Part shown: positions 43,541 to 57,148 of the stretch, one piece after another
Layout: each line of letters starts with the position of its first letter
Numbering within the stretch: position 1 is the stretch's first letter
Assembly (NCBI RefSeq): GCF_000026545.1
Contig: NC_011601.1
DNA from: Escherichia coli O127:H6 str. E2348/69
GTDB lineage: Bacteria; Pseudomonadota; Gammaproteobacteria; Enterobacterales; Enterobacteriaceae
DNA: 64,000 nucleotides
Direction: 5' to 3' (one strand)
Made by a program: the position numbers and the translations under genes
The notes under the pieces: model-generated
The model's input: the letters and a program-made list of their open reading frames with translations, nothing else
What the model was told of the DNA's origin: nothing
Databases searched by the model: none

Positions 43541-44422
43541 TTAACGCGGTACATTCGCGGGATCGCAATAGTCCAGAAAGCGCCGTAGCGCGTTGGAAAG
43601 GTGTTTTTGCCGATGATGTATACGCCACAACGTACGCATCAGGCGCGGCAGAGGGACTGCAACTTCACTTAATGTGCCTGCCTGCAATTGATCTTCAATC
43701 ACCCGTCGCGACAGGCAACTAATTCCCAACCCATGACGCACCGCATGTTTGATTGCCTCGGAGTTACCTAATTCCATCGCCATCTCAAACTTCGGTAAAT
43801 GTGACAGCAACAGATAATCGACAATCTCCCGCGTGCCGGAACCGCGTTCACGCAGGATCCACGGCGCAGCGGCCAGCTGTTCTAAGGTGACCGGACCACG
43901 AGCCAACGGCGAAGTCGGCGCGGCGAAAACCACCAGCTCGTCTTCCAGCCACGGTTCAGAAATGATTTCAGTGCTGTGGCACGGTCCTTCAATAAAGCCA
44001 ATATCAACGCGGAAATCCAGCACCGCTTGCATCACGTCCTGGCTATTCCCAACGCTAAGTTCAATCGGCAACTGCGGATAATCATGGCGATAACGGGCGA
44101 TAACTGCAGGCAGAATGTAGTTACCGATGGTACTACTGGCATAGATACGAATCGCGCCGTTGTCTTCGCGAAACAGTTGTTCGATTTCAACCGCCTGTTC
44201 AAGCAGTGCCAACGCTCGCGGATAGAGCAGCCGCCCGTGTTCATTAACAACCAGTCTTTTCCCCACGCGATCAAACAGTTGAACGCCAAGCTGCCCTTCC
44301 AGGTCGGTCAAGGCTGCGCTCACTGCTGATTGCGACAACGCCAGCATCACCGACGCCTGGGTGGTTGATCCACTTTTCAATACTTCTGCAAAAACTTCCA
44401 ACTGCCGGAGGGTGATGTGCAT
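43541..44422 (-). CDS. yeiE: LysR-family transcriptional regulator
   Basis: 293 aa with an N-terminal LysR-type helix-turn-helix; divergent from yeiH. Confidence 0.9.
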
Positions 44423-44520
44423 AGTCGCTTACCACTTATAAAGATTAATTATAAATATATAATCAATTTTATTTTTAAACCAGTTAGTCGTAACCTTATG
44501 CCCGGTTAAAGGAGAGGGTT

Positions 44521-45570
44521 ATGACGAATATCACCTTACAGAAACAACATCGTACACTGTGGCATTTTATTCCGGGGTTAGCCCTGAGTGCAGTTATCAC
44601 CGGGGTCGCCCTGTGGGGTGGTTCCATTCCCGCGGTTGCGGGTGCCGGGTTTAGTGCCCTCACCCTCGCAATCTTGTTGGGGATGGTTTTAGGCAACACC
44701 ATTTACCCGCACATCTGGAAAAGCTGTGACGGTGGTGTGCTGTTTGCCAAGCAATATTTATTACGTCTGGGTATCATTCTTTATGGCTTCCGTCTGACGT
44801 TCTCGCAAATTGCCGATGTCGGTATCAGTGGGATCATCATTGACGTGTTGACGCTGTCCAGTACCTTCCTGCTGGCTTGCTTCCTGGGGCAGAAAGTGTT
44901 TGGTCTGGATAAGCACACCAGCTGGTTGATCGGTGCCGGTAGCAGTATCTGTGGTGCTGCCGCGGTACTGGCGACTGAGCCGGTAGTGAAAGCAGAAGCC
45001 AGTAAAGTAACCGTGGCTGTTGCAACCGTTGTTATCTTCGGGACCGTCGCGATTTTCCTCTACCCGGCGATATATCCGCTGATGTCTCAATGGTTTAGTC
45101 CGGAAACTTTCGGTATCTACATTGGTTCTACTGTGCACGAAGTGGCGCAGGTGGTGGCGGCAGGTCATGCCATCAGCCCGGATGCAGAAAACGCAGCAGT
45201 TATTTCCAAAATGCTGCGCGTGATGATGCTGGCTCCGTTCCTCATCCTGCTGGCGGCGCGTGTTAAACAGCTGTCTGGGGCGAACAGCGGCGAGAAAAGC
45301 AAAATCACTATTCCGTGGTTTGCCATCTTGTTCATCGTCGTTGCCATCTTTAACTCGTTCCACCTGTTACCGCAGAGCGTGGTGAACATGCTGGTAACGC
45401 TGGATACCTTCCTGCTGGCAATGGCGATGGCGGCGCTGGGTCTGACCACTCACGTCAGCGCGCTGAAAAAAGCCGGGGCGAAACCTCTGCTGATGGCACT
45501 GGTACTGTTTGCCTGGCTGATTGTTGGTGGTGGTGCGATTAACTATGTGATTCAAAGCGTCATCGCATAA
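44521..45570 (+). CDS. yeiH: UPF0324-family inner membrane protein
   Basis: 349 aa hydrophobic ORF with AGGAGAGGG upstream. Confidence 0.88.
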
Positions 45571-45643
45571 ACCACTACATCTTGCTCCTGTTAACCCGCT
45601 ATCATTACCGTTTTCCTCCAGCGGGTTTAACAGGAGTCCTCGC

Positions 45644-46501
45644 ATGAAATACATTGGAGCGCACGTTAGTGCTGCTGGCGGTCTGGCAAATGCCGCAATT
45701 CGCGCCGCCGAAATCGACGCAACCGCGTTTGCCTTGTTCACCAAAAACCAACGTCAGTGGCGTGCCGCACCGCTCACGACGCAAACCATCGATGAATTCA
45801 AAGCCGCCTGTGAAAAATATCACTACACATCGGCGCAAATTCTTCCCCACGACAGTTATCTGATTAACCTCGGACATCCGGTTGCTGAAGCTCTGGAAAA
45901 ATCGCGCGATGCCTTTATAGATGAAATGCAGCGTTGCGAACAGCTGGGGCTTTCTTTGCTCAACTTCCACCCTGGCAGCCATCTGATGCAGATTTCAGAA
46001 GAGGATTGCCTTGCGCGTATTGCCGAATCCATCAACATTGCGCTGGATAAAACTCAAGGTGTCACCGCGGTGATTGAAAACACCGCCGGTCAGGGCAGTA
46101 ACTTAGGGTTTAAATTCGAACATCTCGCGGCGATTATCGACGGCGTGGAAGATAAATCCCGCGTCGGCGTCTGCATTGATACCTGCCATGCTTTCGCTGC
46201 CGGGTATGATTTGCGTACTCCTGCCGAATGCGAGAAAACGTTCGCTGATTTTGCCCGTATTGTAGGCTTTAAGTATCTGCGCGGGATGCACCTCAACGAT
46301 GCGAAAAGCACCTTTGGCAGCCGCGTTGACCGTCATCATAGCCTCGGCGAAGGCAATATCGGTCATGATGCGTTCCGCTGGATCATGCAAGACGACCGTT
46401 TCGACGGCATTCCGCTGATCCTTGAAACCATCAACCCGGATATCTGGGCAGAAGAGATCGCCTGGCTGAAAGCGCAACAAACTGAAAAAGCGGTGGCCTG
46501 A
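45644..46501 (+). CDS. nfo: Endonuclease IV (AP endonuclease)
   Basis: 285 aa; recognised from the AP-endonuclease family-2 sequence. Confidence 0.92.
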
Positions 46502-46504
46502 TCG

Positions 46505-47593
46505 ATGAACGACAGGGAAAAGCAGATTCTTAAAATTTTACGGCGTAACCCGCTGATTCAACAGAATGAAATCGCCGATATTCTGCAAATCAGCCGCTCA
46601 CGTGTTGCCGCTCATATTATGGATTTGATGCGCAAGGGTTTGATTAAAGGCAAAGGATATATCCTTACCGAGCAGGATTACTGTGTGGTTGTGGGTGCAA
46701 TCAATATGGATATTCGCGGAATGGCGGATATCCGTTACCCGCAAGCAGCCTCTCATCCAGGTTCTGTTCACTGTTCCGCAGGCGGCGTCGGACGTAATAT
46801 CGCGCATAACCTGGCTCTGCTTGGTCGGGATGTGCATTTAATTTCAGCTATTGGCAACGATTTTTACGGCGAGACATTACTGGAAGAAACGCGCCGCTCG
46901 GGCGTGAACGTTTCAAACTGCATTCGTCTGCATGGACACAGCACTGCAACTTATCTCGCTATCGCTAATAAGCAGGAAGAAACTATCCTGGCAATCAATG
47001 ACACACATATTCTGCAACAGCTAACGCCTCAACTGCTCAATACTTCACGGGACTTGATTCGCCATGCTGGTGTGGTGCTGGCTGATTGTAATCTCACACC
47101 TGAAGCCCTGGAGTGGGTCTTTACCATTGCTGATGAAATTCCGATGTTTGTCGATACCGTTTCCGAATTTAAAGCGAACAAAGTAAAAAACTGGTACAGC
47201 CGGATCCACACTCTGAAACCGACACAAAATGAACTGGAAATTTTGTGGGGGCAACCGATTAAAGACGACAACGATCGTATCAGAGCTGTAAATTCGCTGC
47301 ATCAACAAGGTGTTAAACGCATTTTTGTTTATCTGAAAGATGAATCTGTATTTTGCAGCGATAAGGATGGAGAACAATTTTTGCTGACCGCGCCAGCGCA
47401 TACGACAGTAGACAGTTTTGGTGCTGACGATGGTTTTATGGCGGGCCTGGTATATAGCTTTCTTGAAGGATACAGTTTCCGCGACAGCGCCCGTTTTGCG
47501 ATGGCCTGCGCGGCAATTTCACGCGCCAGCGGCAGCTTAAACAACCCTACCCTGTCTGCCGATAACGCGCTTTCATTAGTGCCAATGGTGTAA
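46505..47593 (+). CDS. yeiI: Fusion of an N-terminal winged-HTH domain to a PfkB-family carbohydrate/nucleoside kinase
   Basis: 362 aa; residues ~1-55 look like a helix-turn-helix (QNEIADILQISRSRVAAHIMDLMRKGLI); the rest contains GGVGRNIAHNLALLG and aligns with PsuK. Confidence 0.88.
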   Translation: MNDREKQILKILRRNPLIQQNEIADILQISRSRVAAHIMDLMRKGLIKGKGYILTEQDYCVVVGAINMDIRGMADIRYPQAASHPGSVHCSAGGVGRNIAHNLALLGRDVHLISAIGNDFYGETLLEETRRSGVNVSNCIRLHGHSTATYLAIANKQEETILAINDTHILQQLTPQLLNTSRDLIRHAGVVLADCNLTPEALEWVFTIADEIPMFVDTVSEFKANKVKNWYSRIHTLKPTQNELEILWGQPIKDDNDRIRAVNSLHQQGVKRIFVYLKDESVFCSDKDGEQFLLTAPAHTTVDSFGADDGFMAGLVYSFLEGYSFRDSARFAMACAAISRASGSLNNPTLSADNALSLVPMV

Positions 47594-47648
47594 CAATGTT
47601 GCCGGATTCGACGCTTGACCGCATCTTATCCGGCTCATAAATTGCGCA

Positions 47649-48899
47649 CTACGCTAAACCAATAAAGAATCCTGCAATAGTAGCACTCATCAGGTTAGAA
47701 AGTGTCGCCGCCGCCAGCGCGCGTAAACCAAGTTGGGCGATTTCCGGCGCACGGTGTGGCGCAACCGCAGAAAACGCCCCCACCACCACCCCGATAGAAC
47801 CAAAGTTAGCGAAACCGCACAACGCGAAAGAAATAATCGCCACGGTTTTAGCATCCAGAGTGCCACCCGTTTGCAGATATGGCGAGAAATTGAGATAAGC
47901 GACAAATTCATTGATCGCCAGCTTCTGCCCAATCAAACTCCCGGCAAGATTTGCATCACTCCAGTCAACCCCCATCACCCACGCCAATGGGGCCAACAGG
48001 TAACCTAAAATCGACTCCAGCGAAGCATGTTCAAAACCAAACCAGCCGCCAACACCGCCGATAATACCGTTAATCAACGCAATTATTGCAACAAATGCCA
48101 TCACCACTGTCGCCACACCTGCGGCGATTTTCAGCCCGGTCATTGCCCCTGTTGCAGCGGCTTCAATAATGCTCTTTGGCGGTGTTTCGGTGAAAGAGAG
48201 GTTATTAAAGGAAACCTGCGAAGATTCCGTAGCCGGGCTTAACAGGCGGGCAAACAAGATCCCACCGGGAATCGCCATTAACGATGCCGCCAGCAGATAT
48301 TCCACAGGCACGCCCAGTGCGGCGTAACCAATCATTGTCGAACCAGCAATCGAGGCCATACCGCTGCAAATCGCTGTAAATAATTCATTGCGATTCAGCC
48401 GATCGATAAAGGGTTTGACGATTGCCGGAATTTCGTTTTGCCCGAGGAAAATGGTAGTGACCGCGACGAATGACTCGATCTTGCTGATATTTAATGCTTT
48501 CTGGAAGATACCGCCGAGAATTCGAATTAAGATCCCCATCACACCGATGTAGTAGAGAATACTCACCAGCGCGGTGACGAAGATAATTGCCGGTAACACC
48601 CTGAAACCAAAGATAAATCCTGCGCCATCAAATAAGGTATCCATTTTCGGTCCGACCAGAGAACCGAAAATAAATGCGCTACCCGCGTCGCTGTACGCCA
48701 TCACTTTATGGACGCCAAAAGCGACTTTTTCTGCGACCCAACGCCCTGGCGGTAACCAAAGCATTATGCCGCCAATCACGACCTGTAACACTAACGCCGC
48801 GCCAACGGTACGCAGGCTGATCTTCTTTTTGTTTACTGACAGCAAAAACGCAATAGCCAGTAATACCACCATTCCCAGAACACTTCTCATGACATCCAT
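47649..48899 (-). CDS. nupX: NupC-family nucleoside permease
   Basis: 416 aa; about 88% identical by eye to the PsuT ORF at 50835-52085. Confidence 0.9.
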   Translation of the reverse strand: MDVMRSVLGMVVLLAIAFLLSVNKKKISLRTVGAALVLQVVIGGIMLWLPPGRWVAEKVAFGVHKVMAYSDAGSAFIFGSLVGPKMDTLFDGAGFIFGFRVLPAIIFVTALVSILYYIGVMGILIRILGGIFQKALNISKIESFVAVTTIFLGQNEIPAIVKPFIDRLNRNELFTAICSGMASIAGSTMIGYAALGVPVEYLLAASLMAIPGGILFARLLSPATESSQVSFNNLSFTETPPKSIIEAAATGAMTGLKIAAGVATVVMAFVAIIALINGIIGGVGGWFGFEHASLESILGYLLAPLAWVMGVDWSDANLAGSLIGQKLAINEFVAYLNFSPYLQTGGTLDAKTVAIISFALCGFANFGSIGVVVGAFSAVAPHRAPEIAQLGLRALAAATLSNLMSATIAGFFIGLA

Positions 48900-48998
48900 A
48901 GTTATTATCTCTTCATGTCATTTTGGGCGACGGCTCTCTGCCCATCATAAATAGCCGGGCCTGCATCTTGCGATACTGACCCGGCTTGTTATCAACAC

Positions 48999-49940
48999 TT
49001 AATGGGTTTTTATGTAGCCGCGTACGCACTCTTCGACTAATCCCCAGAACCAGTCGGTATCAATAGTGATGCCGACTTTGGTATTGGCGGGCTTGCCAAG
49101 AACACCCAGCTCGTCGCAGACGGTACGCCCATAGCAAGGGCCACTGTTAACGTCCACTTCGACGTACATTTCCTGGGTTTTAATGCCATCAGGGTTAATC
49201 AAATAACCGATGCAGGTGGCGTCGTGCACCGGGCCGCCAGCCAGGCCGTAGTTTTCGAACTGCGTTTTGAGAGTGAAGTTCATGATGTCGCTGAACAGCT
49301 CTCCGGCAGGGCCGCCAGCCCTTTCCATCCGAGCAATCACATCCGGGGTGCAAACGGTCTGGTTGGTAAGATCGAGGCCCATCATCACTAATGGAACGCC
49401 GGAGGTGAACACCACACGTGCGGCCTCCGGGTCAGCAAAGATGTTGAACTCAGCAGATGGGGTGAAGTTGCCAGTACCATAAGCACCGCCCATCAGAACA
49501 ATTTCACGGATTTTCGGCAGGATCGCGGGTTGCATACGCATTGCCACCGCGATGTTTGACAACGGACCAACCGGCACCAGAGTGATATCGCCATCGCTTG
49601 CCATAAGGGTATCGATGATATATTTCACCGCATGAGTGTTTTCTGCCTGGCGGGTCAGCGGCTCGAATACCGGGCCATCCAGTCCGGTTTCACCGTGAAT
49701 ATTATCGGCAACAATTTGTTGACGCATAATGGGCTGCGGCATCCCCGCATAAACCGGAACATTAATCTCCAGTTTCTGGCAAACATTCAGGCCATTAATT
49801 AATGTTTTATCGAGGGTTTGATTACCCGCTACAATGGTGATACCTAATAAATCAATCGCCGGATGTTTCGCCGCCATCATTATAGCAATAGCATCATCAT
49901 GACCCGGATCACAATCCAGAATAATTTTTCTCTTTTCCAT
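48999..49940 (-). CDS. rihB: Pyrimidine-specific ribonucleoside hydrolase (IU-NH family)
   Basis: 313 aa; N-terminal DCDPGHDD aspartate motif. Confidence 0.9.
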
Positions 49941-50108
49941 TGTTTATTTCCTCTGTTTCCAGTTGCGTTATTGTTTCTACAGCAAAGAAAATTCGATCGG
50001 GCCGATGATTGAATCTTAACAACAGCGTACGTATGCTAAATATGAGAAATCTCATAGCGGATAAACATCGTGAAAGAAATCCACAATAATGATCTTAAGC
50101 AGCAATTG

Positions 50109-50768
50109 ATGAGTGAATCTGCGTTTAAGGATTGCTTTTCAACGGATGTTTCAGCCGATACGCGGCTGTTTCATTTTTTAGCGCGTGACTACATTGTGCA
50201 GGAAGGGCAACAGCCGTCCTGGCTGTTTTACCTGACGCGAGGCCGCGCCAGGCTTTACGTCACGCTTGCTAATGGTCGCGTGTCGCTGATCGATTTCTTT
50301 GCCGCGCCCTGTTTTATTGGCGAGATTGAGTTAATCGACAAAGACCATGAACCGCGTGCAGTGCAGGCTATTGAAGAGTGTTGGTGCCTTGCGCTCCCTA
50401 TGAAGCATTACCGCCCGTTGTTATTAAACGACACGCTATTTTTACGAAAACTCTGCGTCACCTTAAGTCATAAAAATTATCGTAATATTGTTTCTTTAAC
50501 TCAGAATCAATCATTTCCGTTAGTGAATCGCCTGGCAGCTTTTATATTACTCTCGCAGGAAGGTGATCTTTATCACGAAAAGCATACGCAAGCGGCAGAG
50601 TATTTAGGCGTCTCTTATCGTCATCTTTTATATGTTCTCGCGCAATTCATTAATGACGGTTTATTAATTAAAAGCAAGAAAGGGTATCTCATTAAAAACA
50701 GAAAGCAGTTGTCAGGACTGGCGCTGGAGATGGACCCGGAGAATAAATTCTCCGGGATGATGCAGTAA
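50109..50768 (+). CDS. yeiL: CRP/FNR-family transcriptional regulator
   Basis: 219 aa from [10 protein letters not shown]; cNMP-binding-like fold followed by a C-terminal helix-turn-helix. Confidence 0.8.
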
Positions 50769-50788
50769 AAATTATTGGCAATAGTGCG

Positions 50789-50828
50789 ATTGCCGGATGC
50801 AACGCTTAATAAGGTGTACATCCGGCAA
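50789..50828. repeat. REP-like palindrome between convergent yeiL and psuT
   Basis: TTGCCGGATGCAACGCTTAATAAGGTGTACATCCGGCAA is a degenerate REP. Confidence 0.6.
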
Positions 50829-50834
50829 TGAAAC

Positions 50835-52085
50835 TCAAGCTAAACCAATAAAGAACCCGGCAATGGTCGCGCTCATCAGGTTAGAAAGTGTCGCCGCCGC
50901 CAGCGCCCGTAAACCAAGCTGGGCGATTTCCGGCGCACGTTTTGGCGAAATAGCCGAAAACGCCCCAACGACAACACCGATAGAACCAAAGTTAGCAAAA
51001 CCACACAGCGCAAAGGAGATGATCGCCACGGTTTTCACTTCCAGCGTGCCGCCCGTTTGCAGATATGGCGAAAAACTCAGGTAAGCGACAAATTCGTTAA
51101 TCGCCAGTTTCTGCCCAATCAAACTTCCGGCAAGATTTGCATCACTCCAGTCCACCCCCATAATCCATGCCAACGGGGCCAGCACATAGCCGAAAATGCT
51201 TTCCAGAGAGACATTGGCAAAACCAAACCAGCCGCCAACTCCACCAATAATGCCGTTGATCAGCGCAATGATCGCCACAAATGCCATTACCACCGTCGCC
51301 ACACCGGCGGCGATTTTCAGCCCGGTCATTGCACCGTTCGCCGCAGCTTCAATAATGCTTTTTGGCGGTGTTTCGCTAAACGACAGATTTTCAAATGTCA
51401 CCTGCGAAGGCTCGGTGGCTGGGCTAAGAATACGTGCAAACAAAATACCACCAGGGATCGCCATCAGCGATGCCGCTAACAGGTAGTCAATTGGTACGCC
51501 CATTCCGGCATAACCAATCATCATCGAACCGGCAATGGACGCCATCCCGCTACAAATTGCCGTAAATAGCTCGTTGCGATTCATGCGATCGATAAACGGT
51601 TTAACGATCGCCGGGATCTCATTTTGCCCGAGGAAAATAGTGGTAACCGCAACAAAAGATTCGATTTTGCTGATGTTGAGGGCTTTCTGAAAAATACTAC
51701 CAAGAATGCGGATTAGCAGCCCCATCACGCCAATGTAGTACAGCAGGCTGATGAGCGCGGTAACGAAAATAATCGCCGGGAGTACGCGAAAGGCGAAGAT
51801 AAAGCCCGCACCGTCAAACAGAACATCCATTTTGGGACCGACCAGCGAACCAAAAATAAAGGCACTTCCTGCGTCACTGTAGGACATCACTTTATGGACG
51901 CCTAATGCCGCCTGCTCTACTGCCCATTTTCCCGGGGGAAAATAGAGCATGATGCCACCAATGGCAATTTGCAGCAGCAGCGCAGCCCCAACCGTGCGCA
52001 AGCTGATGCTCTTTTTATTTACCGACAACACAAAGGCAATTGCCAGCAATACCACCATCCCCACAACACTTCTCATTATATCCAT
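50835..52085 (-). CDS. psuT: NupC-family pseudouridine/nucleoside transporter
   Basis: 416 aa; paralogue of nupX. Confidence 0.9.
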   Translation of the reverse strand: MDIMRSVVGMVVLLAIAFVLSVNKKSISLRTVGAALLLQIAIGGIMLYFPPGKWAVEQAALGVHKVMSYSDAGSAFIFGSLVGPKMDVLFDGAGFIFAFRVLPAIIFVTALISLLYYIGVMGLLIRILGSIFQKALNISKIESFVAVTTIFLGQNEIPAIVKPFIDRMNRNELFTAICSGMASIAGSMMIGYAGMGVPIDYLLAASLMAIPGGILFARILSPATEPSQVTFENLSFSETPPKSIIEAAANGAMTGLKIAAGVATVVMAFVAIIALINGIIGGVGGWFGFANVSLESIFGYVLAPLAWIMGVDWSDANLAGSLIGQKLAINEFVAYLSFSPYLQTGGTLEVKTVAIISFALCGFANFGSIGVVVGAFSAISPKRAPEIAQLGLRALAAATLSNLMSATIAGFFIGLA

Positions 52086-52178
52086 AATGATTTTCCCTTC
52101 ATGCCAGTAAACCCGGCGTCAGCGCCAGGTTTTGGTATGTTTGATGAGTACGGGCGACGGCTTTCTGCCCACCAGAAA

Positions 52179-53117
52179 TTAACCCACGAGACGCTGATAT
52201 TCTTTGGCAATTTCGCTCGCCAGAATGGCGTTATTAAAGACCAGTTGAATATTGGATTTCAGGCTATCACCGCCGGTTAGCTCCGCAACACGCGCCAGCA
52301 GGAACGGTGTACTCTCTTTCCCAATAACACCCTGTTCTTCGGCTTCAGCAACGGCTTGATCAATTGCTGCATTGATGGTTTCTTCTGGCATCGCAAACTG
52401 TTCCGGGATCGGGTTCGCTACCACCAGGCCGCCGTTCAAACCGGTTTGCCACTTCACTGCCATCGCGCGAGCAATTTCGCGGGCACTGTCAAGACGAATG
52501 CTGACTTCAAATGGGCTGGTTCGGCAGAAAAACGCAGGCAGCGCTTTTGTCTGATAACCAATTAACGGTACACCGAAGGTTTCTAAATATTCTGTTGTTA
52601 ATCCTAAATCGAGAATAGATTTTGCCCCCGCACAAACAACAGTGACATTGGTATTTGCCAGTTCCTGTAAATCGGCAGAAATATCGAAGGTATGTTCCGC
52701 TCCGCGATGCACACCACCAATACCTCCGGTTGCAAAAACTTTAATCCCAGCCAGTGCTGCAATAATCATGGTTGATGCAACGGTAGTCGCGCCATTTTTC
52801 CCTGCAGCAACGACAAAAGGTAAATCACGACGACTAACTTTCGTCACGTTATGTCCTTCACGGCCCAGCAATTCGATTTCTTCTTTACTTAAGCCCACTT
52901 TCATCACACCGCCAATAATGGCGATAGTGGCTGGTACTGCGCCCTGTTTACGAATTGTTTCTTCTACTTCAATTGCGGTTTGGGCATTTTGTGGGAATGG
53001 CATTCCGTGAGAAATTATGGTCGATTCCAGCGCAACAACCGGTTTTTTATTTTTTAAAGCATCCTGTACTTCAGCGGATATTTGTAATAATTCAGGGGAC
53101 AGAGTTAATTCAGACAT
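52179..53117 (-). CDS. psuG: Pseudouridine-5'-phosphate glycosidase
   Basis: 312 aa; start overlaps the psuK 3' end by 13 nt. Confidence 0.9.
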   Translation of the reverse strand: MSELTLSPELLQISAEVQDALKNKKPVVALESTIISHGMPFPQNAQTAIEVEETIRKQGAVPATIAIIGGVMKVGLSKEEIELLGREGHNVTKVSRRDLPFVVAAGKNGATTVASTMIIAALAGIKVFATGGIGGVHRGAEHTFDISADLQELANTNVTVVCAGAKSILDLGLTTEYLETFGVPLIGYQTKALPAFFCRTSPFEVSIRLDSAREIARAMAVKWQTGLNGGLVVANPIPEQFAMPEETINAAIDQAVAEAEEQGVIGKESTPFLLARVAELTGGDSLKSNIQLVFNNAILASEIAKEYQRLVG

Positions 53118-54046
53118 TCTGTGTTCTCCACTAACGATGTAACATTGGCAATTGATAATTCAGGGTTGTTGGTATATTCACAGGCAAGTGCCATTGACGA
53201 ACATCCCTGCGCAAATCGAACAGAATCGATAAACGGCATACCGTCTACCCAACAGGAGGCCAGCCCCGCCATCATGGCGTCGCCTGCCCCAGTAACATTG
53301 ATGACATTCGTTTTAATAGGGGCCGACCACCCACTTTCACCGTTGATATCACTGTAGTAAACGCCATCCCCTCCCATGCTCAGCACCAGGCGGTTCAGGC
53401 CGTGTTGATGAAACCAGGCGGCGACCTTTGCGACATCTTCACGTCCGGAAAGTGCAATTCCGCTCAACGTTTCGGCTTCAAGACGGTTAGGTTTTAACGT
53501 ATGGATTTTGCTCAGATGATCGCGGATTTTGACGCATTTCCATGCCGATACCGGATCAATAAATACAGGCGTTTCCCCGCTATTTTCCAGAACCCAGACC
53601 AGCGCCTCTTCACTAAGGTTGCAATCCGCGACAATAACCTTTGCACCGCGAATAAACTCCTGATGCTGGGCAAGAAATTCTGCAGAAATACAGTCACTAA
53701 TACTCATATCATTTATCGCGACAAGCATTTCTCCTGTATTATCGAGCAGTGATAAATAGCTGGATGTATTCTCACCCGGAACAATTAAGCATTTATCGAC
53801 ATAAACACCGGATTGATTAGTTTGCGCCAGTAATGATTGCCCATAAAAATCACCACCTACTGCACTTAAAAGCCAGGCATTTTTCCCCAGTAACGCCAGA
53901 TTATGAGCGATATTCCTTCCCACGCCACCTGGGGTAAATTTAATTTTTCCGGGATTCGAATCCGCATAATTCAATGGATGATGTGAATACCCAGCCACAT
54001 CAATATTCGCCGAGCCAATAATTACTATGTAGTCCTTTTCGCGCAT
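53105..54046 (-). CDS. psuK: Pseudouridine kinase (PfkB family)
   Basis: 313 aa from MREKDYIVIIGSANID; PfkB motif GGVGRNIAHNLALLG; the track ORF has a 38-codon in-frame upstream extension. Confidence 0.85.
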   Translation of the reverse strand: MREKDYIVIIGSANIDVAGYSHHPLNYADSNPGKIKFTPGGVGRNIAHNLALLGKNAWLLSAVGGDFYGQSLLAQTNQSGVYVDKCLIVPGENTSSYLSLLDNTGEMLVAINDMSISDCISAEFLAQHQEFIRGAKVIVADCNLSEEALVWVLENSGETPVFIDPVSAWKCVKIRDHLSKIHTLKPNRLEAETLSGIALSGREDVAKVAAWFHQHGLNRLVLSMGGDGVYYSDINGESGWSAPIKTNVINVTGAGDAMMAGLASCWVDGMPFIDSVRFAQGCSSMALACEYTNNPELSIANVTSLVENTECLN

Positions 54047-54345
54047 AGCACGCCCCCTGGCAATAAATTGCCAACGAAGAAATTGGGTAAAATAGTCATT
54101 ACAGTCAATAAGACTATTAGAGCACGTGTTCAGATTTAAACACATGTTCATAATAAGCATGTTTAACGTAATGTAAATCGATCAGAAAAAACGAAATCGG
54201 CCAGATATGAAGGCGGTCACAAAATTTGTCTATTTATGCAGCAACAAAAGAGAAAGTTGTGATGTGTAACACACAATATGGCAGGCAAGAAAAAGGGCAG
54301 AGATGTTTCTGCCCTCAGATTGTTGACAATGCGCGCTTTGTTCAT

Positions 54346-54444
54346 GCTGGATGTGGCGTAAACGCCTTATCCGACCTACAAAAGCGCAAAAATTCAATAT
54401 ATTGCAGGGTTCATGTAGGTCTGATAAGCATAGCGCATCAGGCA
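54346..54444. repeat. REP pair between psuK and fruA
   Basis: GCTGGATGTGGCGTAAACGCCTTATCCGACCTAC and GTAGGTCTGATAAGCATAGCGCATCAGGCA. Confidence 0.8.
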
Positions 54445-54501
54445 ATTTTGCGTTTGTCATCATCGGGGCAGAGATGTCTCAGCCCCGATGATGAAGAGAA
54501 A

Positions 54502-56193
54502 TTATGCGTTTTTTTCTACTATTTGTGTTTCCGGGCGTTTGAGGAAGGCATAGGCCAAACCCGCCACCAGCGTACCGGCAATAATTGCTACCAGGTAACC
54601 CAATACCGGCGTAATAGCGCCAGGGATCAGCAGAACAAACAGACCACCGTGTGGTGCCATCAGTTTCGCACCAATCGCCATTGAAATTGCGCCAGTCAGC
54701 GCCCCACCAACGATACAGCACGGTAGCACACGCATCGGATCACGAGCAGCAAACGGAATTGCACCTTCCGAAATAAAGCACAGACCAAGTACCAGAGCGG
54801 CTTTGCCACCTTCCTGCTGCGCTTTGTCGAATTTGCGACGCGCCACCATTGTTGCCAGACCCATTGCCAGCGGTGGCACCATACCTGCCGCCATAATCGC
54901 CGCCATCGGGCCATAGGTTTGAGTACTCAGCAGACCCACACCGAATGCGTACGCTGCTTTGTTTACCGGACCGCCCATGTCAGTACACATCATGCCACCG
55001 AGGATCGCCCCCAGCAGAACCGCATTCGCAGTCCCCATGGTCTGCAGCCAGTGAGTCAACCCATCGAGAATGCCAGCAACCGGTTTACCGATTAGGTAGA
55101 TCATCGCCAGACCGACCACCAGACTGGAAATTAGCGGAATGATCAGGATCGGTTTCAGTGCCTCCATACTCTGTGGCAGTTTCAGTTGCGTACTGATTAA
55201 CTTCGCAATGTAACCCGCCAGGAAGCCCGCAATAATACCACCAATGAAGCCAGAACCGGTGCTAACCGCCAGCATACCGCCAATCAGACCCGGCGTGAGA
55301 CCCGGACGATCGGCAATGGAGAAGGCAATATAACCTGCCAGTACCGGCACCATCAGCGCAAAGGCTGAACCACCACCAATCTGCATCAGCGCCGCTGCCA
55401 ACGTACCCGGCTCTTTAAACGCTTCGATACCAAAAGCAAAAGAAAGCGCGATACACAGACCACCTGCAACAACCATCGGCAGCATGTAAGAGACGCCCGT
55501 CAGCAAGTGACGGTAAGCACCTGCACTCTCTTTCTTACCTTCAGTGGTCGCTGTTTGAGTTTTGCCCGCCGGTTCATACGGCGTTGCTTCAGCAACCGCT
55601 TTATCCAGTTCCTGCGCAGTTTTCTTCAGCGCCAGACCGGTAGAGGTGCGATACATCGGTTTACCAGCAAATTTCGCCAGATCCACTTCGATATCTGCCG
55701 CCACAATCACCAGATCCGCTGCTGCGACTTCTTCAGGGGTGATTGCATTGCCCGCGCCAACAGAACCACGGGTTTCAACTTTCACCCACCAGCCACGTTT
55801 TTTCGCTTCGGTTTCAATGGCTTCAGCCGCCATAAAGGTGTGTGCTACGCCAGTCGGGCAAGCAGTCACCGCAACTACGCGTTTCGGACCGCTGGCAGCA
55901 ACCGGTGCTGTCGCAGCGACCGGCGCAGTGTAAGGTTTCGCATGGCCTTTGGCTTCACTCAGGAACAACTCAGGGTGCGCAACTGCCCGGGAAATATCAC
56001 CCAGCCAGACATTTTTACCGTTCAGCGCGCTGTCATTCGGGATGGAATCACCGAGAACAATCGCCATTTCTGCGTCGTTCGGATTGTCGATGATTTCCAG
56101 TTTTGCTTTTCGCGCCGCCGCGCCCAGCAGGGTCTTCGCCATATAGGCGCGTGCCTGACCGAGATTAGCGTCAATAATCAGCAGCGTTTTCAT
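54502..56193 (-). CDS. fruA: Fructose-specific PTS EIIB'BC component
   Basis: 563 aa; soluble B domains followed by a large hydrophobic C domain. Confidence 0.92.
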   Translation of the reverse strand: MKTLLIIDANLGQARAYMAKTLLGAAARKAKLEIIDNPNDAEMAIVLGDSIPNDSALNGKNVWLGDISRAVAHPELFLSEAKGHAKPYTAPVAATAPVAASGPKRVVAVTACPTGVAHTFMAAEAIETEAKKRGWWVKVETRGSVGAGNAITPEEVAAADLVIVAADIEVDLAKFAGKPMYRTSTGLALKKTAQELDKAVAEATPYEPAGKTQTATTEGKKESAGAYRHLLTGVSYMLPMVVAGGLCIALSFAFGIEAFKEPGTLAAALMQIGGGSAFALMVPVLAGYIAFSIADRPGLTPGLIGGMLAVSTGSGFIGGIIAGFLAGYIAKLISTQLKLPQSMEALKPILIIPLISSLVVGLAMIYLIGKPVAGILDGLTHWLQTMGTANAVLLGAILGGMMCTDMGGPVNKAAYAFGVGLLSTQTYGPMAAIMAAGMVPPLAMGLATMVARRKFDKAQQEGGKAALVLGLCFISEGAIPFAARDPMRVLPCCIVGGALTGAISMAIGAKLMAPHGGLFVLLIPGAITPVLGYLVAIIAGTLVAGLAYAFLKRPETQIVEKNA

Positions 56194-56209
56194 TATGCCT
56201 CTCCTGCTG

Positions 56210-57148
56210 TCAGTTAAAAGGTTGTAAGTCGACGCGCGCCATCATTGCGGCCAACTGCGGACGATCGGTAATACCCACATTGCTTTGACTTACCGCCAGG
56301 GCTGCAACAGCTGTCGCCAGACGCAGTGTGTGTTCACTGGATTCACGCATCAGCAAGCCATAAATCAGGCCACCAACCATAGAATCCCCTGCGCCAACGG
56401 TGCTTACGACATCGACTGACGGTGGTTTGGCGATCCATTCGCCGGAGGCATTAACCCAAAGCGCGCCTTCGGCACCCAGTGAAATAACAACATGCGCGAT
56501 GCCTTGTTCACGCAGCGCATGCGCAGCTTCAATCACATCTTTCATTTCAGGCAGTTTACGGCCTGCCCAGATTTCCAGCTCGCGGCGGTTAGGTTTCACC
56601 AGCCACGGTGCCGCTTTCAAACCTGCTACTAACGCTTCACGGCTACTATCAAAGATAATGCAAGGACACTGACTACGCAGGCGAGTCATCCAGTCGGTGA
56701 ACGCTTCCGGGCTGACGCCTGACGGTAAGCTTCCGCTGACACAGACCATATCGAACTGACCGAGCCAGCTCAGAGAATCAGTCACAAAGCGTTCCCAGTC
56801 GGCGGGGGTGACTTCAAAACCCGAGAAGTTGAAGTCGGTCACTTCGCCGTCTTTTTCCGTCAGCTTAACGTTAATTCGGGTGCGCCCCTGTACAACCTGG
56901 AAACGGTTGGCAATGCCCAGCTCGCTGAACAGTTGCTGAAAACCATCCTGATTGTCTTTACCCATGAAGCCGCCAACGGTGACATCAATTCCCAGGTCTT
57001 TTAATACTTTGGCCACGTTGATGCCTTTACCCGCCGCATGCAGACCGGTGGTTTTCACCAGGTTCACTTCGCCGCGTTCAATTTCCGGGCAGAAACCAAC
57101 AAGGTCATAAGCCGGATTAAGGGTGATAGTAGCAACACGTCTGCTCAT
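56210..57148 (-). CDS. fruK: 1-phosphofructokinase
   Basis: 312 aa PfkB-family kinase; start overlaps the fruB stop. Confidence 0.92.
   Translation of the reverse strand: MSRRVATITLNPAYDLVGFCPEIERGEVNLVKTTGLHAAGKGINVAKVLKDLGIDVTVGGFMGKDNQDGFQQLFSELGIANRFQVVQGRTRINVKLTEKDGEVTDFNFSGFEVTPADWERFVTDSLSWLGQFDMVCVSGSLPSGVSPEAFTDWMTRLRSQCPCIIFDSSREALVAGLKAAPWLVKPNRRELEIWAGRKLPEMKDVIEAAHALREQGIAHVVISLGAEGALWVNASGEWIAKPPSVDVVSTVGAGDSMVGGLIYGLLMRESSEHTLRLATAVAALAVSQSNVGITDRPQLAAMMARVDLQPFN

Follow-up and report, generated by a model that had tools for sequence, protein, structure and literature searches.

Escherichia coli YeiI as a candidate pseudouridine-responsive repressor of psuKGT built on a PsuK-derived pseudokinase sensor

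The gene yeiI of Escherichia coli O127:H6 str. E2348/69 was analyzed within a stretch of 64,000 nucleotides of contig NC_011601.1 (the window), which matches the E2348/69 sequence by 100% across yeiI. The gene product joins a winged helix-turn-helix (HTH) domain to a PfkB-type kinase domain. The comparisons reported here favour, with a probability of roughly 0.6, the reading that YeiI is a pseudouridine-responsive one-component repressor of the psuKGT genes, built on a pseudokinase sensor derived from the pseudouridine kinase PsuK.

Gene content of the locus

The genes of the region follow the order yeiE-yeiH-nfo-yeiI-nupX-rihB-yeiL-psuT-psuG-psuK-fruA. Those of main concern, together with the domains of YeiI and the basis of each assignment, are the following:

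46505..47593, plus strand: yeiI coding sequence, winged HTH and PfkB-like domain (open reading frame and translation of 362 aa plus stop, Pfam, NCBIfam, AlphaFold2)
46505..46666, plus strand: winged-HTH domain, residues 1-54 (HTH_24, predicted helices, conservation)
within 46505..46666, plus strand: recognition helix of the YeiI HTH, about residues 31-43, SRSRVAAHIMDLM (AlphaFold2 model)
46676..47548, plus strand: PfkB-like (PsuK-like) domain, residues 58-348, presumed pseudouridine sensor (Pfam PfkB, Foldseek)
47649..50768, no strand assigned: nupX-rihB-yeiL block between yeiI and psuT, in E. coli loci only (locus comparison)
50835..52085, minus strand: psuT, NupC-family transporter of the psu operon (locus annotation)
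52179..53117, minus strand: psuG, pseudouridine-5'-phosphate glycosidase (locus annotation)
53105..54046, minus strand: psuK, pseudouridine kinase, the HTH-less paralogue of 313 aa with canonical NxxE and GAGD (alignment, motifs)

Domain architecture and predicted fold

The domain prediction placed Pfam HTH_24 (PF13412) on residues 1-48 of YeiI (E 1.1e-11, 44.6 bits, cutoff 21.9) and PfkB (PF00294) on residues 58-348 (E 4.5e-64, 217 bits, cutoff 25.8), both above the Pfam cutoffs. The AlphaFold2 model, made with a 133-sequence alignment, had a predicted local distance difference test score (pLDDT) of 93.8 and a predicted template modelling score (pTM) of 0.87. Its N-terminus consists of helices at residues 3-14, 20-27 and 31-43 and of strands at residues 47-49 and 52-53, with pLDDT 84-97 over the block, and is thus in the model a three-helix winged HTH with a beta-hairpin wing. 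The open reading frame was recovered as in the preliminary description of the locus, with the same 362-aa product. That description had taken the first ~55 residues for a winged-HTH DNA-binding domain; this was borne out by both the domain prediction and the modelled fold, the latter being a winged HTH and not a fold foreign to DNA binding. Another model, constructed of the isolated HTH without an alignment (pLDDT 66), was not used. Residues R31, S32, H37, L41, K44, G45 and Y52 of the HTH are each at least 88% conserved across the HTH-PfkB family, and the closest sequences in the PDB are the winged HTHs of Lrp/AsnC-type proteins (E 1e-3 to 5e-2).

In the Foldseek comparison, the YeiI model aligned with E. 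coli PsuK with a target-normalised template modelling (TM) score of 0.96 and a root mean square deviation of 1.6-1.9 A, and with ribokinases with TM scores of 0.84-0.91; the alignments of the PDB matches listed were confined to the kinase domain. E. coli PsuK, or YeiC (PDB 7vkp, 7vtd; EC 2.7.1.83), has the same PfkB fold as YeiI, about 40% identity to it and a place in the same gene cluster, but is HTH-less and has the canonical motifs NxxE/GxxG/GAGD, whereas YeiI has TxxE/KDES/GADD. The alignment of PsuK covers only residues 55-359 of YeiI, and the in-frame sequence upstream of E. coli psuK contains no HTH remnant, only AT-rich promoter DNA. The statement of the preliminary description that PsuK lacks the HTH was therefore correct.

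The combination of HTH and PfkB in YeiI is not new at the database level. YeiI scored 814 bits against the NCBIfam equivalog PRK09954, while its score against the PsuK equivalog NF007355 was 266 bits, below the cutoff of 540 bits. Its own NCBIfam equivalog, NF007416, is named merely 'sugar kinase', and some orthologues are named 'winged helix-turn-helix transcriptional regulator' by NCBI. YeiI has been listed among 108 predicted, uncharacterised transcription factors of E. coli (PMC6055005) and called 'uncharacterized' in work on PsuK (PMC9061257). In the searchable literature, no paper describing a psu-operon regulator, or an HTH-PfkB regulator of any kind, was found. A LeuO paper (PMC6698644) mentions 'YeiI' as a characterised LysR-type regulator, an evident slip for YeiE that could mislead text-mining.

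The yeiI start codon lies 3 nt past the nfo stop (window 46501-46505), and because of this spacing the two genes are probably co-transcribed. The consensus promoter scan for yeiI produced weak candidates inside nfo and nothing stronger; a genomic systematic evolution of ligands by exponential enrichment (SELEX) table for RpoD includes a constitutive promoter in the nfo>yeiI spacer (PMC3946193).

State of the kinase domain

Three motifs of the PfkB-like domain, all identified from the family alignment, deviate from those of the other family members:

47222..47233, plus strand: degenerate NxxE, T240-Q-N-E243 (PsuK N187-R-L-E190)
47336..47347, plus strand: degenerate ATP loop, K278-D-E-S281 (family G-x-x-G)
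47420..47431, plus strand: altered catalytic/anion-hole motif, G306-A-D308-D309 (GADD; family GAGD)

The first position of NxxE is T in 10 of the 12 sequences of the YeiI clade and N in 107 of the 121 sequences of the rest of the family; in PsuK, N187 and E190 are situated at the putative Mg2+ site (PMC9247573). The [ST]LGxxG loop reads YLKDES in YeiI, the glycines at positions 278 and 281 being present in 108 and 116 of the 121 family sequences, respectively, and in none of the 12 YeiI-clade sequences at either position. Position 308 is D throughout the YeiI clade (12/12) and G in 109 of the 121 others. The loss of the three ATP/phosphate motifs NxxE, LGxxG and GAGD together is specific to the YeiI clade, and because these phosphate-contacting motifs are degenerate in this clade in particular, YeiI is more likely a ligand-binding pseudokinase than a working kinase equipped with a DNA-binding domain.

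The nucleoside pocket showed a different pattern. The crystal structure of PsuK with pseudouridine (PMC9247573) provides a list of 12 contacts, N14, D16, S30', G41, V42, N45, Y97, M114, N143, V166, S167 and K170, of which 11 are identical in the YeiI clade (N67, D69, S83, G94, V95, N98, Y150, N196, V219, S220 and K223). The sole contact that differs is the base clamp M114, replaced by T167, and altogether two base-clamp changes from Met to Thr (M107T, M114T) are fixed in the clade.

Constraint was also unevenly distributed along the protein. Among 11 matched genomes, the mean pairwise identity was 94.6% in the YeiI HTH; in the nucleoside half it was 83.4% for YeiI and 81.0% for PsuK, and in the ATP half 74.0% and 81.7%, with 60 and 82 invariant columns, respectively. 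Between E. coli and E. albertii, an unsaturated pair, the ratio of nonsynonymous to synonymous divergence (omega) was 0 for the YeiI HTH, with dN close to 0. For the nucleoside half, omega was 0.11 in YeiI and 0.08 in PsuK, and for the ATP half 0.150 and 0.016, respectively. Judged by these measures, YeiI is maintained and not decaying, with the constraint strongest on DNA binding and weakest on the ATP site. Furthermore, yeiI belongs to the core genome: of 5426 complete E. coli genomes, 5421 have it.

It is unlikely, though conceivable, that YeiI has remained active as a kinase besides acting as a regulator, which would make it a trigger enzyme with a rewired metal/phosphate site in which D308 would compensate for the lost N187, perhaps acting on a modified pseudouridine or another pyrimidine nucleoside in a pocket enlarged by M107T and M114T. 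Such an enzyme would be in keeping with the retention of D309, E243, D217 and the GG motif, with the fixation of both base-clamp changes, with purifying selection on the ATP half (omega about 0.1-0.15) and with the canonical HTH-PsuK relatives, which combine enzyme and HTH in one protein. On the other hand, three separate ATP/phosphate motifs are altered at once, the ATP half of YeiI is relaxed relative to that of PsuK, and the more diverged YeiI-like proteins have no catalytic Asp at all (GADE in Affinibrenneria, GIDN in the metagenomic P0098 lineage). The readers of N3/O4 and O2, N196 and K223, are conserved, which points to a pseudouridine-like base. In its treatment of YeiI, a benchmarking paper from 2025 rejects the machine-learning label 'pseudouridine kinase' on the grounds that a psuK mutant cannot use pseudouridine (PMC12506659, citing Preumont 2008). 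As far as that statement goes, the mutant's inability to grow on pseudouridine means that YeiI is no substitute kinase in vivo. The suggestion of the preliminary description that DNA binding might depend on phosphorylation is weakened by the same three degenerate ATP motifs.

Two deeply diverged alleles of yeiI occur in E. coli. One is about 99% identical to the window in 2005 complete genomes, the other has 80-90% nucleotide identity to the window in 3323 genomes (the examples listed about 81%). In one strain with the diverged allele (L011), psuK is also diverged (88% aa), and MG1655 shares the psuK-promoter variant of this strain. Both alleles have kept GADD/TxxE and the operator boxes described below. 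The divergence, far above the typical level of E. coli core genes, suggests an old recombination import or balancing selection.

Relatives of YeiI and history of the gene pair

At 50% identity, the HTH-PfkB family fell into 783 clusters with E <1e-30; of the best 150, the majority were full length, the HTH included. When one genome per species was scanned, 78 loci were obtained from Gamma- and Betaproteobacteria, many Clostridia and Spirochaetes, and every match began near YeiI residue 1. In this set, annotated by means of the E. coli proteins, psuG lies directly 3' of the HTH-PfkB gene on the same strand, often accompanied by a NupC-type transporter gene; the exceptions are the YeiI-type loci, the second paralogue of Xenorhabdus and two truncated contigs. 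About 70 of the non-YeiI fusions keep G[ACG]GD and nearly all KPNxxE, and since the canonical catalytic motifs are thus kept, the non-YeiI members are best read from their sequences as HTH-fused pseudouridine kinases. They have no family name of their own, being annotated as 'PfkB family carbohydrate kinase', 'pseudouridine kinase' or 'winged helix-turn-helix transcriptional regulator'.

These HTH-fused kinases (Yersinia, Serratia, Photorhabdus, Vibrio, Shewanella, Aeromonas, Betaproteobacteria, Clostridia, Spirochaetes) have the same HTH_24 and PfkB domains as YeiI and share with it the conserved N-terminus MTxRExxIL and the recognition helix; their psu promoters also carry the paired-palindrome operator found at YeiI-type psuK. 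Each is the first gene of a psuK-psuG operon with all catalytic motifs and is presumed bifunctional. YeiI, in contrast, is encoded by a separate convergent gene, has degenerate ATP-site motifs and stands alongside an HTH-less PsuK.

Among the YeiI-type loci, nfo-yeiI is convergent to psuT-psuG-psuK, with an HTH-less psuK, in Escherichia, three Citrobacter, two Enterobacter, Leclercia and a Klebsiella-like locus. The unit of yeiI and psuT-psuG-psuK was also present without nfo in three unrelated neighbourhoods, namely an island of Salmonella flanked by insertion sequences, Affinibrenneria and the P0098 lineage. All YeiI-type genomes examined have yeiI outside the psu operon, in convergent orientation to psuT-psuG-psuK. 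The nupX-rihB-yeiL block was found only in two E. coli loci (the window and L011) and is absent from E. albertii (L008), Citrobacter, Enterobacter, Leclercia, the Klebsiella-like locus and Salmonella. The identity between NupX and PsuT is 89%, which marks NupX as a recently duplicated copy of the transporter of the psu operon; its present partner is a nucleoside hydrolase.

The neighbour-joining tree of the kinase domains nested both YeiI and the HTH-less PsuK within the HTH-PsuK of Enterobacterales (bootstrap 83), PsuK grouping with the fusions of Yersinia, Serratia and Photorhabdus (bootstrap 75). The stem of YeiI was longer than that of PsuK (0.44 and 0.21, respectively). The simplest history compatible with the tree would be that a fused gene was duplicated, after which one copy lost its HTH and the other changed rapidly.

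Two further observations concern the fused relatives. Xenorhabdus genomes contain two HTH-PfkB paralogues (P0079 versus P0092/P0094/P0097), both with canonical motifs, and the copy at L022 has no psuG downstream; the pair may represent another, independent duplication. The annotated proteins of Yersinia (L001/L002 8001-8030) and of the Serratia type (P0067, P0071) begin with an N-terminal extension, MFKNKQVS(I/N)M, whose coding sequence is that of the operator boxes. The annotated starts of these HTH-PsuK are probably 9 codons too early, the conserved family start being the downstream MTSREKQIL.

The psuK promoter and its operator

The following elements were located upstream of psuK:

54206..54221, minus strand: CRP-like site TGTGAccgcctTCATA, about 30 bp upstream of the psuK -35 (sequence and alignment)
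54172..54177, minus strand: psuK -35 hexamer TTTACA (promoter scan, kept in 12 genomes, MG1655 mutation)
54155..54166, minus strand: operator box C TTAAACATGCTT, in the -35/-10 spacer and overlapping the -10 (box search, alignment)
54150..54155, minus strand: psuK -10 hexamer TATTAT (promoter scan, alignment)
54138..54149, minus strand: operator box A GAACATGTGTTT, over the predicted transcription start (box search; kept in all YeiI-type psuK promoters)
54120..54131, minus strand: operator box B GAACACGTGCTC, 18 bp downstream of box A (box search, alignment)

The consensus promoter scan identified TTTACA-16-TATTAT at 54177-54150 (10/12). An independent marker of this promoter came from a long-term mouse-gut evolution study, in which an A>C mutation at 2257444 in the psuK/fruA spacer recurred in 5 of 7 mice and affected psuK expression and growth (PMC9509342). 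The study places this single-nucleotide polymorphism (SNP) merely in the promoter region. Two srlR mutations of the same table, both offset by +1978, were used to calibrate the coordinate, and the SNP was mapped to NC_000913.3:2259422 (L086 position 1923; plus-strand base A), equivalent to window 54175. On the psuK strand of MG1655 it changes TTTACT to TTGACT and, going by its sequence, is an up-mutation in the psuK -35 hexamer. The position of the psuK promoter is fixed by this mutation together with the agreeing consensus scan.

Twelve YeiI-type psuK promoters share TGTGA-N6-TCATA, a -35 TTTACA/T, a -10 TAyTAT and the 12-bp palindromic boxes. The first of these elements, which we take to be a CRP site from its likeness to the consensus TGTGA-N6-TCACA, is kept in all YeiI-type genomes, Affinibrenneria included (TGTGA-N6-TCATC), and suggests catabolite control of pseudouridine use.

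No other paired site in the 64-kb window scores as high as boxes A and B (15/16). In the family loci, paired AAACAnnTGTTT boxes (12-bp palindromes, 18-19 bp apart) were present within 120 nt upstream of the gene in 36 of the 71 HTH-psuK upstream regions. Only 4 of the 1686 other upstream regions of the same loci contained such pairs, as did 4 of 234 AT-matched regions (odds ratio 59, p 1.4e-22). In many species the boxes enclose a TATAAT-like spacer and so bracket the -10 element and the start site. Paired boxes were also detected on the psuK promoters of Affinibrenneria and the P0098 lineage, and none were detected at three loci in which psuK is HTH-less and no HTH paralogue is in view. The positions outside the search pattern differ by group, the outer bases being G/C in YeiI-type promoters and A/T elsewhere. 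Taken singly, the 12-mer GAACANNTGTTC, with up to 2 mismatches, occurred in the window about as often as expected (30 sites against 27), so that information lies only in the pairing.

Two candidate signals were left out of the argument. The paired-box-like AAACAGTTGTTC-N6-AACCGCCTGTTC in the yeiE coding sequence (44172-44201, 14/16), the only other near-operator score in the window, was set aside as a probable chance match. Recognition helix and operator seem to co-vary, TRSSxAVHISNL occurring with AAGCA in Clostridia and R33/A36/D40 with outer G/C in the YeiI clade, which is suggestive; this pattern is confounded by phylogeny and is not claimed as evidence.

The HTH is the most conserved part of YeiI and the operator accompanies HTH-PfkB genes across phyla, which together support the idea, already put forward in the preliminary description, of a one-component regulator. 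DNA binding dependent on a substrate is well supported by these comparative data. As targets the same description had named rihB-nupX or yeiL, and this part was not supported. The block is restricted to E. coli and without operator-like boxes, whereas the conserved partner is psuT-psuG-psuK, with the boxes on the psuK promoter. That YeiI regulates its E. coli neighbours nupX-rihB and/or yeiL is accordingly very improbable. In E. coli these genes adjoin yeiI, both NupX and RihB have pyrimidine nucleosides as their substrates, and regulatory carry-over from PsuT to its recent copy NupX is conceivable. Against these points, the block is missing from every other YeiI-bearing genus examined and from E. 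albertii, yeiI and nupX are convergent rather than divergent, and the intergenic regions contain no pairs: in rihB-yeiL, nupX-rihB, yeiI-nupX, yeiL-psuT, yeiH-nfo, yeiE-yeiH and the 3' end of nfo, single boxes reached at most 5-6/8.

The placement of box C in the spacer and over the -10, of A over the start and of B just downstream is, as predicted from sequence, a geometry typical of repressors. A role of YeiI as an activator or dual regulator of psuKGT, required like AraC for the genes to be induced, here by pseudouridine, appears quite improbable, if somewhat less so than control of the neighbours. It would fit the number of boxes, three, with one in the -35/-10 spacer, and the weak -35, which a single SNP can improve; among the gut mutations listed there are also no loss-of-function alleles of yeiI, though up-regulation of psuK was selected. 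The location of boxes A and B over and downstream of the predicted start, and the bracketing of the -10 by the boxes in many species, are instead repressor-typical.

Paired boxes were not limited to psu promoters. The HTH-PfkB proteins P0199 and P0212 have no catalytic Asp and adjoin non-psu operons, one with PRAI, Fe-ADH and nucleoside hydrolase genes and the other AllF/AllG/AllH-like. At both promoters (L090 1292-1487; L091 4100-4366), paired boxes surround a TATA-like element, from which it seems that pseudokinase regulators of the HTH-PfkB family have been recruited to other pathways. The HTH-psuK promoters of Aeromonas (L003, L032, L035, L042) are devoid of canonical paired boxes and have GCAAACGTTTCC and GGACAAACGTTT elements instead. 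These resemble what we take to be a PurR-type box, which hints at a different or additional regulator in Aeromonas.

Rfam detected no riboswitch or leader over 44000-56500. In the psuK-fruA spacer (54340-54422), there were weak, sub-threshold matches to the naRNA4 and ES036 small-RNA families, probably representing REP-type repeats. The same spacer contains one further feature:

54316-54293: fruA terminator (scan)

Discussion

YeiI is the sole protein with an HTH of this family near the psu genes in Enterobacteriaceae, and the operator persists at a psuK that has itself lost the HTH. For these reasons YeiI is proposed as the repressor of psuKGT. The ancestor would have been a bifunctional HTH-PsuK, an enzyme auto-repressing its own operon, of the kind that persists in most other lineages. 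After duplication, PsuK would have kept catalysis and dropped the HTH, while YeiI would have kept the HTH and ligand binding and dropped catalysis. The HTH of YeiI is predicted to bind the paired GAACAyrTGTTy boxes 18 bp apart and the third box, which together cover the -10, the start and the early transcribed region, and ligand-free YeiI on boxes C, A and B would block RNA polymerase and repress psuKGT. Pseudouridine, or a very close analogue, would enter the conserved nucleoside pocket of YeiI, upon which the PfkB lid would close, substrate-induced closure being documented for PsuK (PMC9061257). As the HTHs are tethered to strand beta-1 by only about 5 residues, closure of the lid could re-orient them and release the DNA. 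CRP would probably add catabolite control at psuK.

Several observations weigh against this proposal. The sequence data cannot set the stoichiometry or the sign of the regulation, and the searchable literature yielded no direct data, whether on binding, expression or enzyme activity, for YeiI or any HTH-PsuK. The catalytic D309 is retained in YeiI of Enterobacteriaceae; moreover, Asp can take a Gly-like backbone conformation, so that N240T and G308D are possibly a compensatory rewiring of the Mg2+ site. About half of the HTH-psuK promoters pass the strict box criterion, the rest having variants or nothing, and the box core was part of the search pattern, making its conservation partly circular. 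A search of the 300 nt preceding yeiI in 11 genomes detected no boxes and thus no sign of autoregulation. In the mouse gut, according to the portion of the study's results concerned, the repressors frlR, srlR, dgoR and kdgR were repeatedly knocked out, whereas psuK was raised through one -35 SNP (PMC9509342). The mutation-table rows listed, covering 3 of the 7 mice, include no yeiI mutation, which is unexpected for a simple repressor.

The proposed arrangement of YeiI has parallels in known systems. The ROK repressors NagC, Mlc and XylR use a sugar-kinase fold, preceded by an N-terminal winged HTH, as ligand sensor, and their active kinase paralogues are HTH-less. YeiI shares this sensor logic, but the ROK fold is unrelated (ASKHA/ROK, not PfkB/ribokinase) and its ligands are sugars rather than a nucleoside; among the Pfam matches of YeiI there was no ROK family, nor was any sequence relationship to ROK proteins found. 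The trigger enzymes BirA, NadR and PutA combine an enzyme and the repressor of its cognate pathway in one polypeptide. The canonical HTH-PsuK resemble them in layout with different enzyme folds, and YeiI appears to be a post-enzymatic descendant of such a protein. The solved sequences closest to the YeiI HTH are Lrp/AsnC-type (FFRP) winged HTHs, PH0061 (2dbb) and LrpA (1i1g), and HTH_AsnC-type Pfam matches were also obtained. The effector domain of YeiI is, however, PfkB and not RAM/ACT-like, and its dimer geometry would presumably come from the PfkB beta-clasp. The plant plastid proteins FLN1 and FLN2 are PfkB-family members reported to have no kinase activity and to occur in transcription complexes. 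The likeness to YeiI is an analogy only, as they are eukaryotic, have no HTH and are subunits of the plastid RNA polymerase rather than ligand-responsive DNA binders.

More widely, the chances appear even that HTH-PsuK form a widespread, undescribed class of trigger enzymes that auto-repress the psu operon, from Clostridia and Spirochaetes to Proteobacteria, with the two roles split by duplication into PsuK and YeiI in Enterobacteriaceae (and, separately or earlier, in Affinibrenneria and others).

YeiI still belongs to the uncharacterised 'y-genes' of E. coli. What is new here is the specific assignment of a generic 'sugar kinase' or predicted transcription factor, with a target promoter, a candidate effector, diagnostic residues and boxes placed at base-pair resolution. 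Among the modified nucleosides that RNA turnover releases, pseudouridine is the most abundant. The psuK promoter has been selected repeatedly in the mouse gut, and its regulator would thus bear on gut colonisation; it may also bear on strains for pseudouridine production, in which psuK and psuG are already manipulated. If the proposal is true, YeiI would supply the regulator so far missing for pseudouridine catabolism in E. coli, would offer a clean case in nature of a bifunctional enzyme-repressor split into two genes, and would add a PfkB-based member to the sensor regulators derived from enzymes, with the bifunctional ancestors still extant for comparison.

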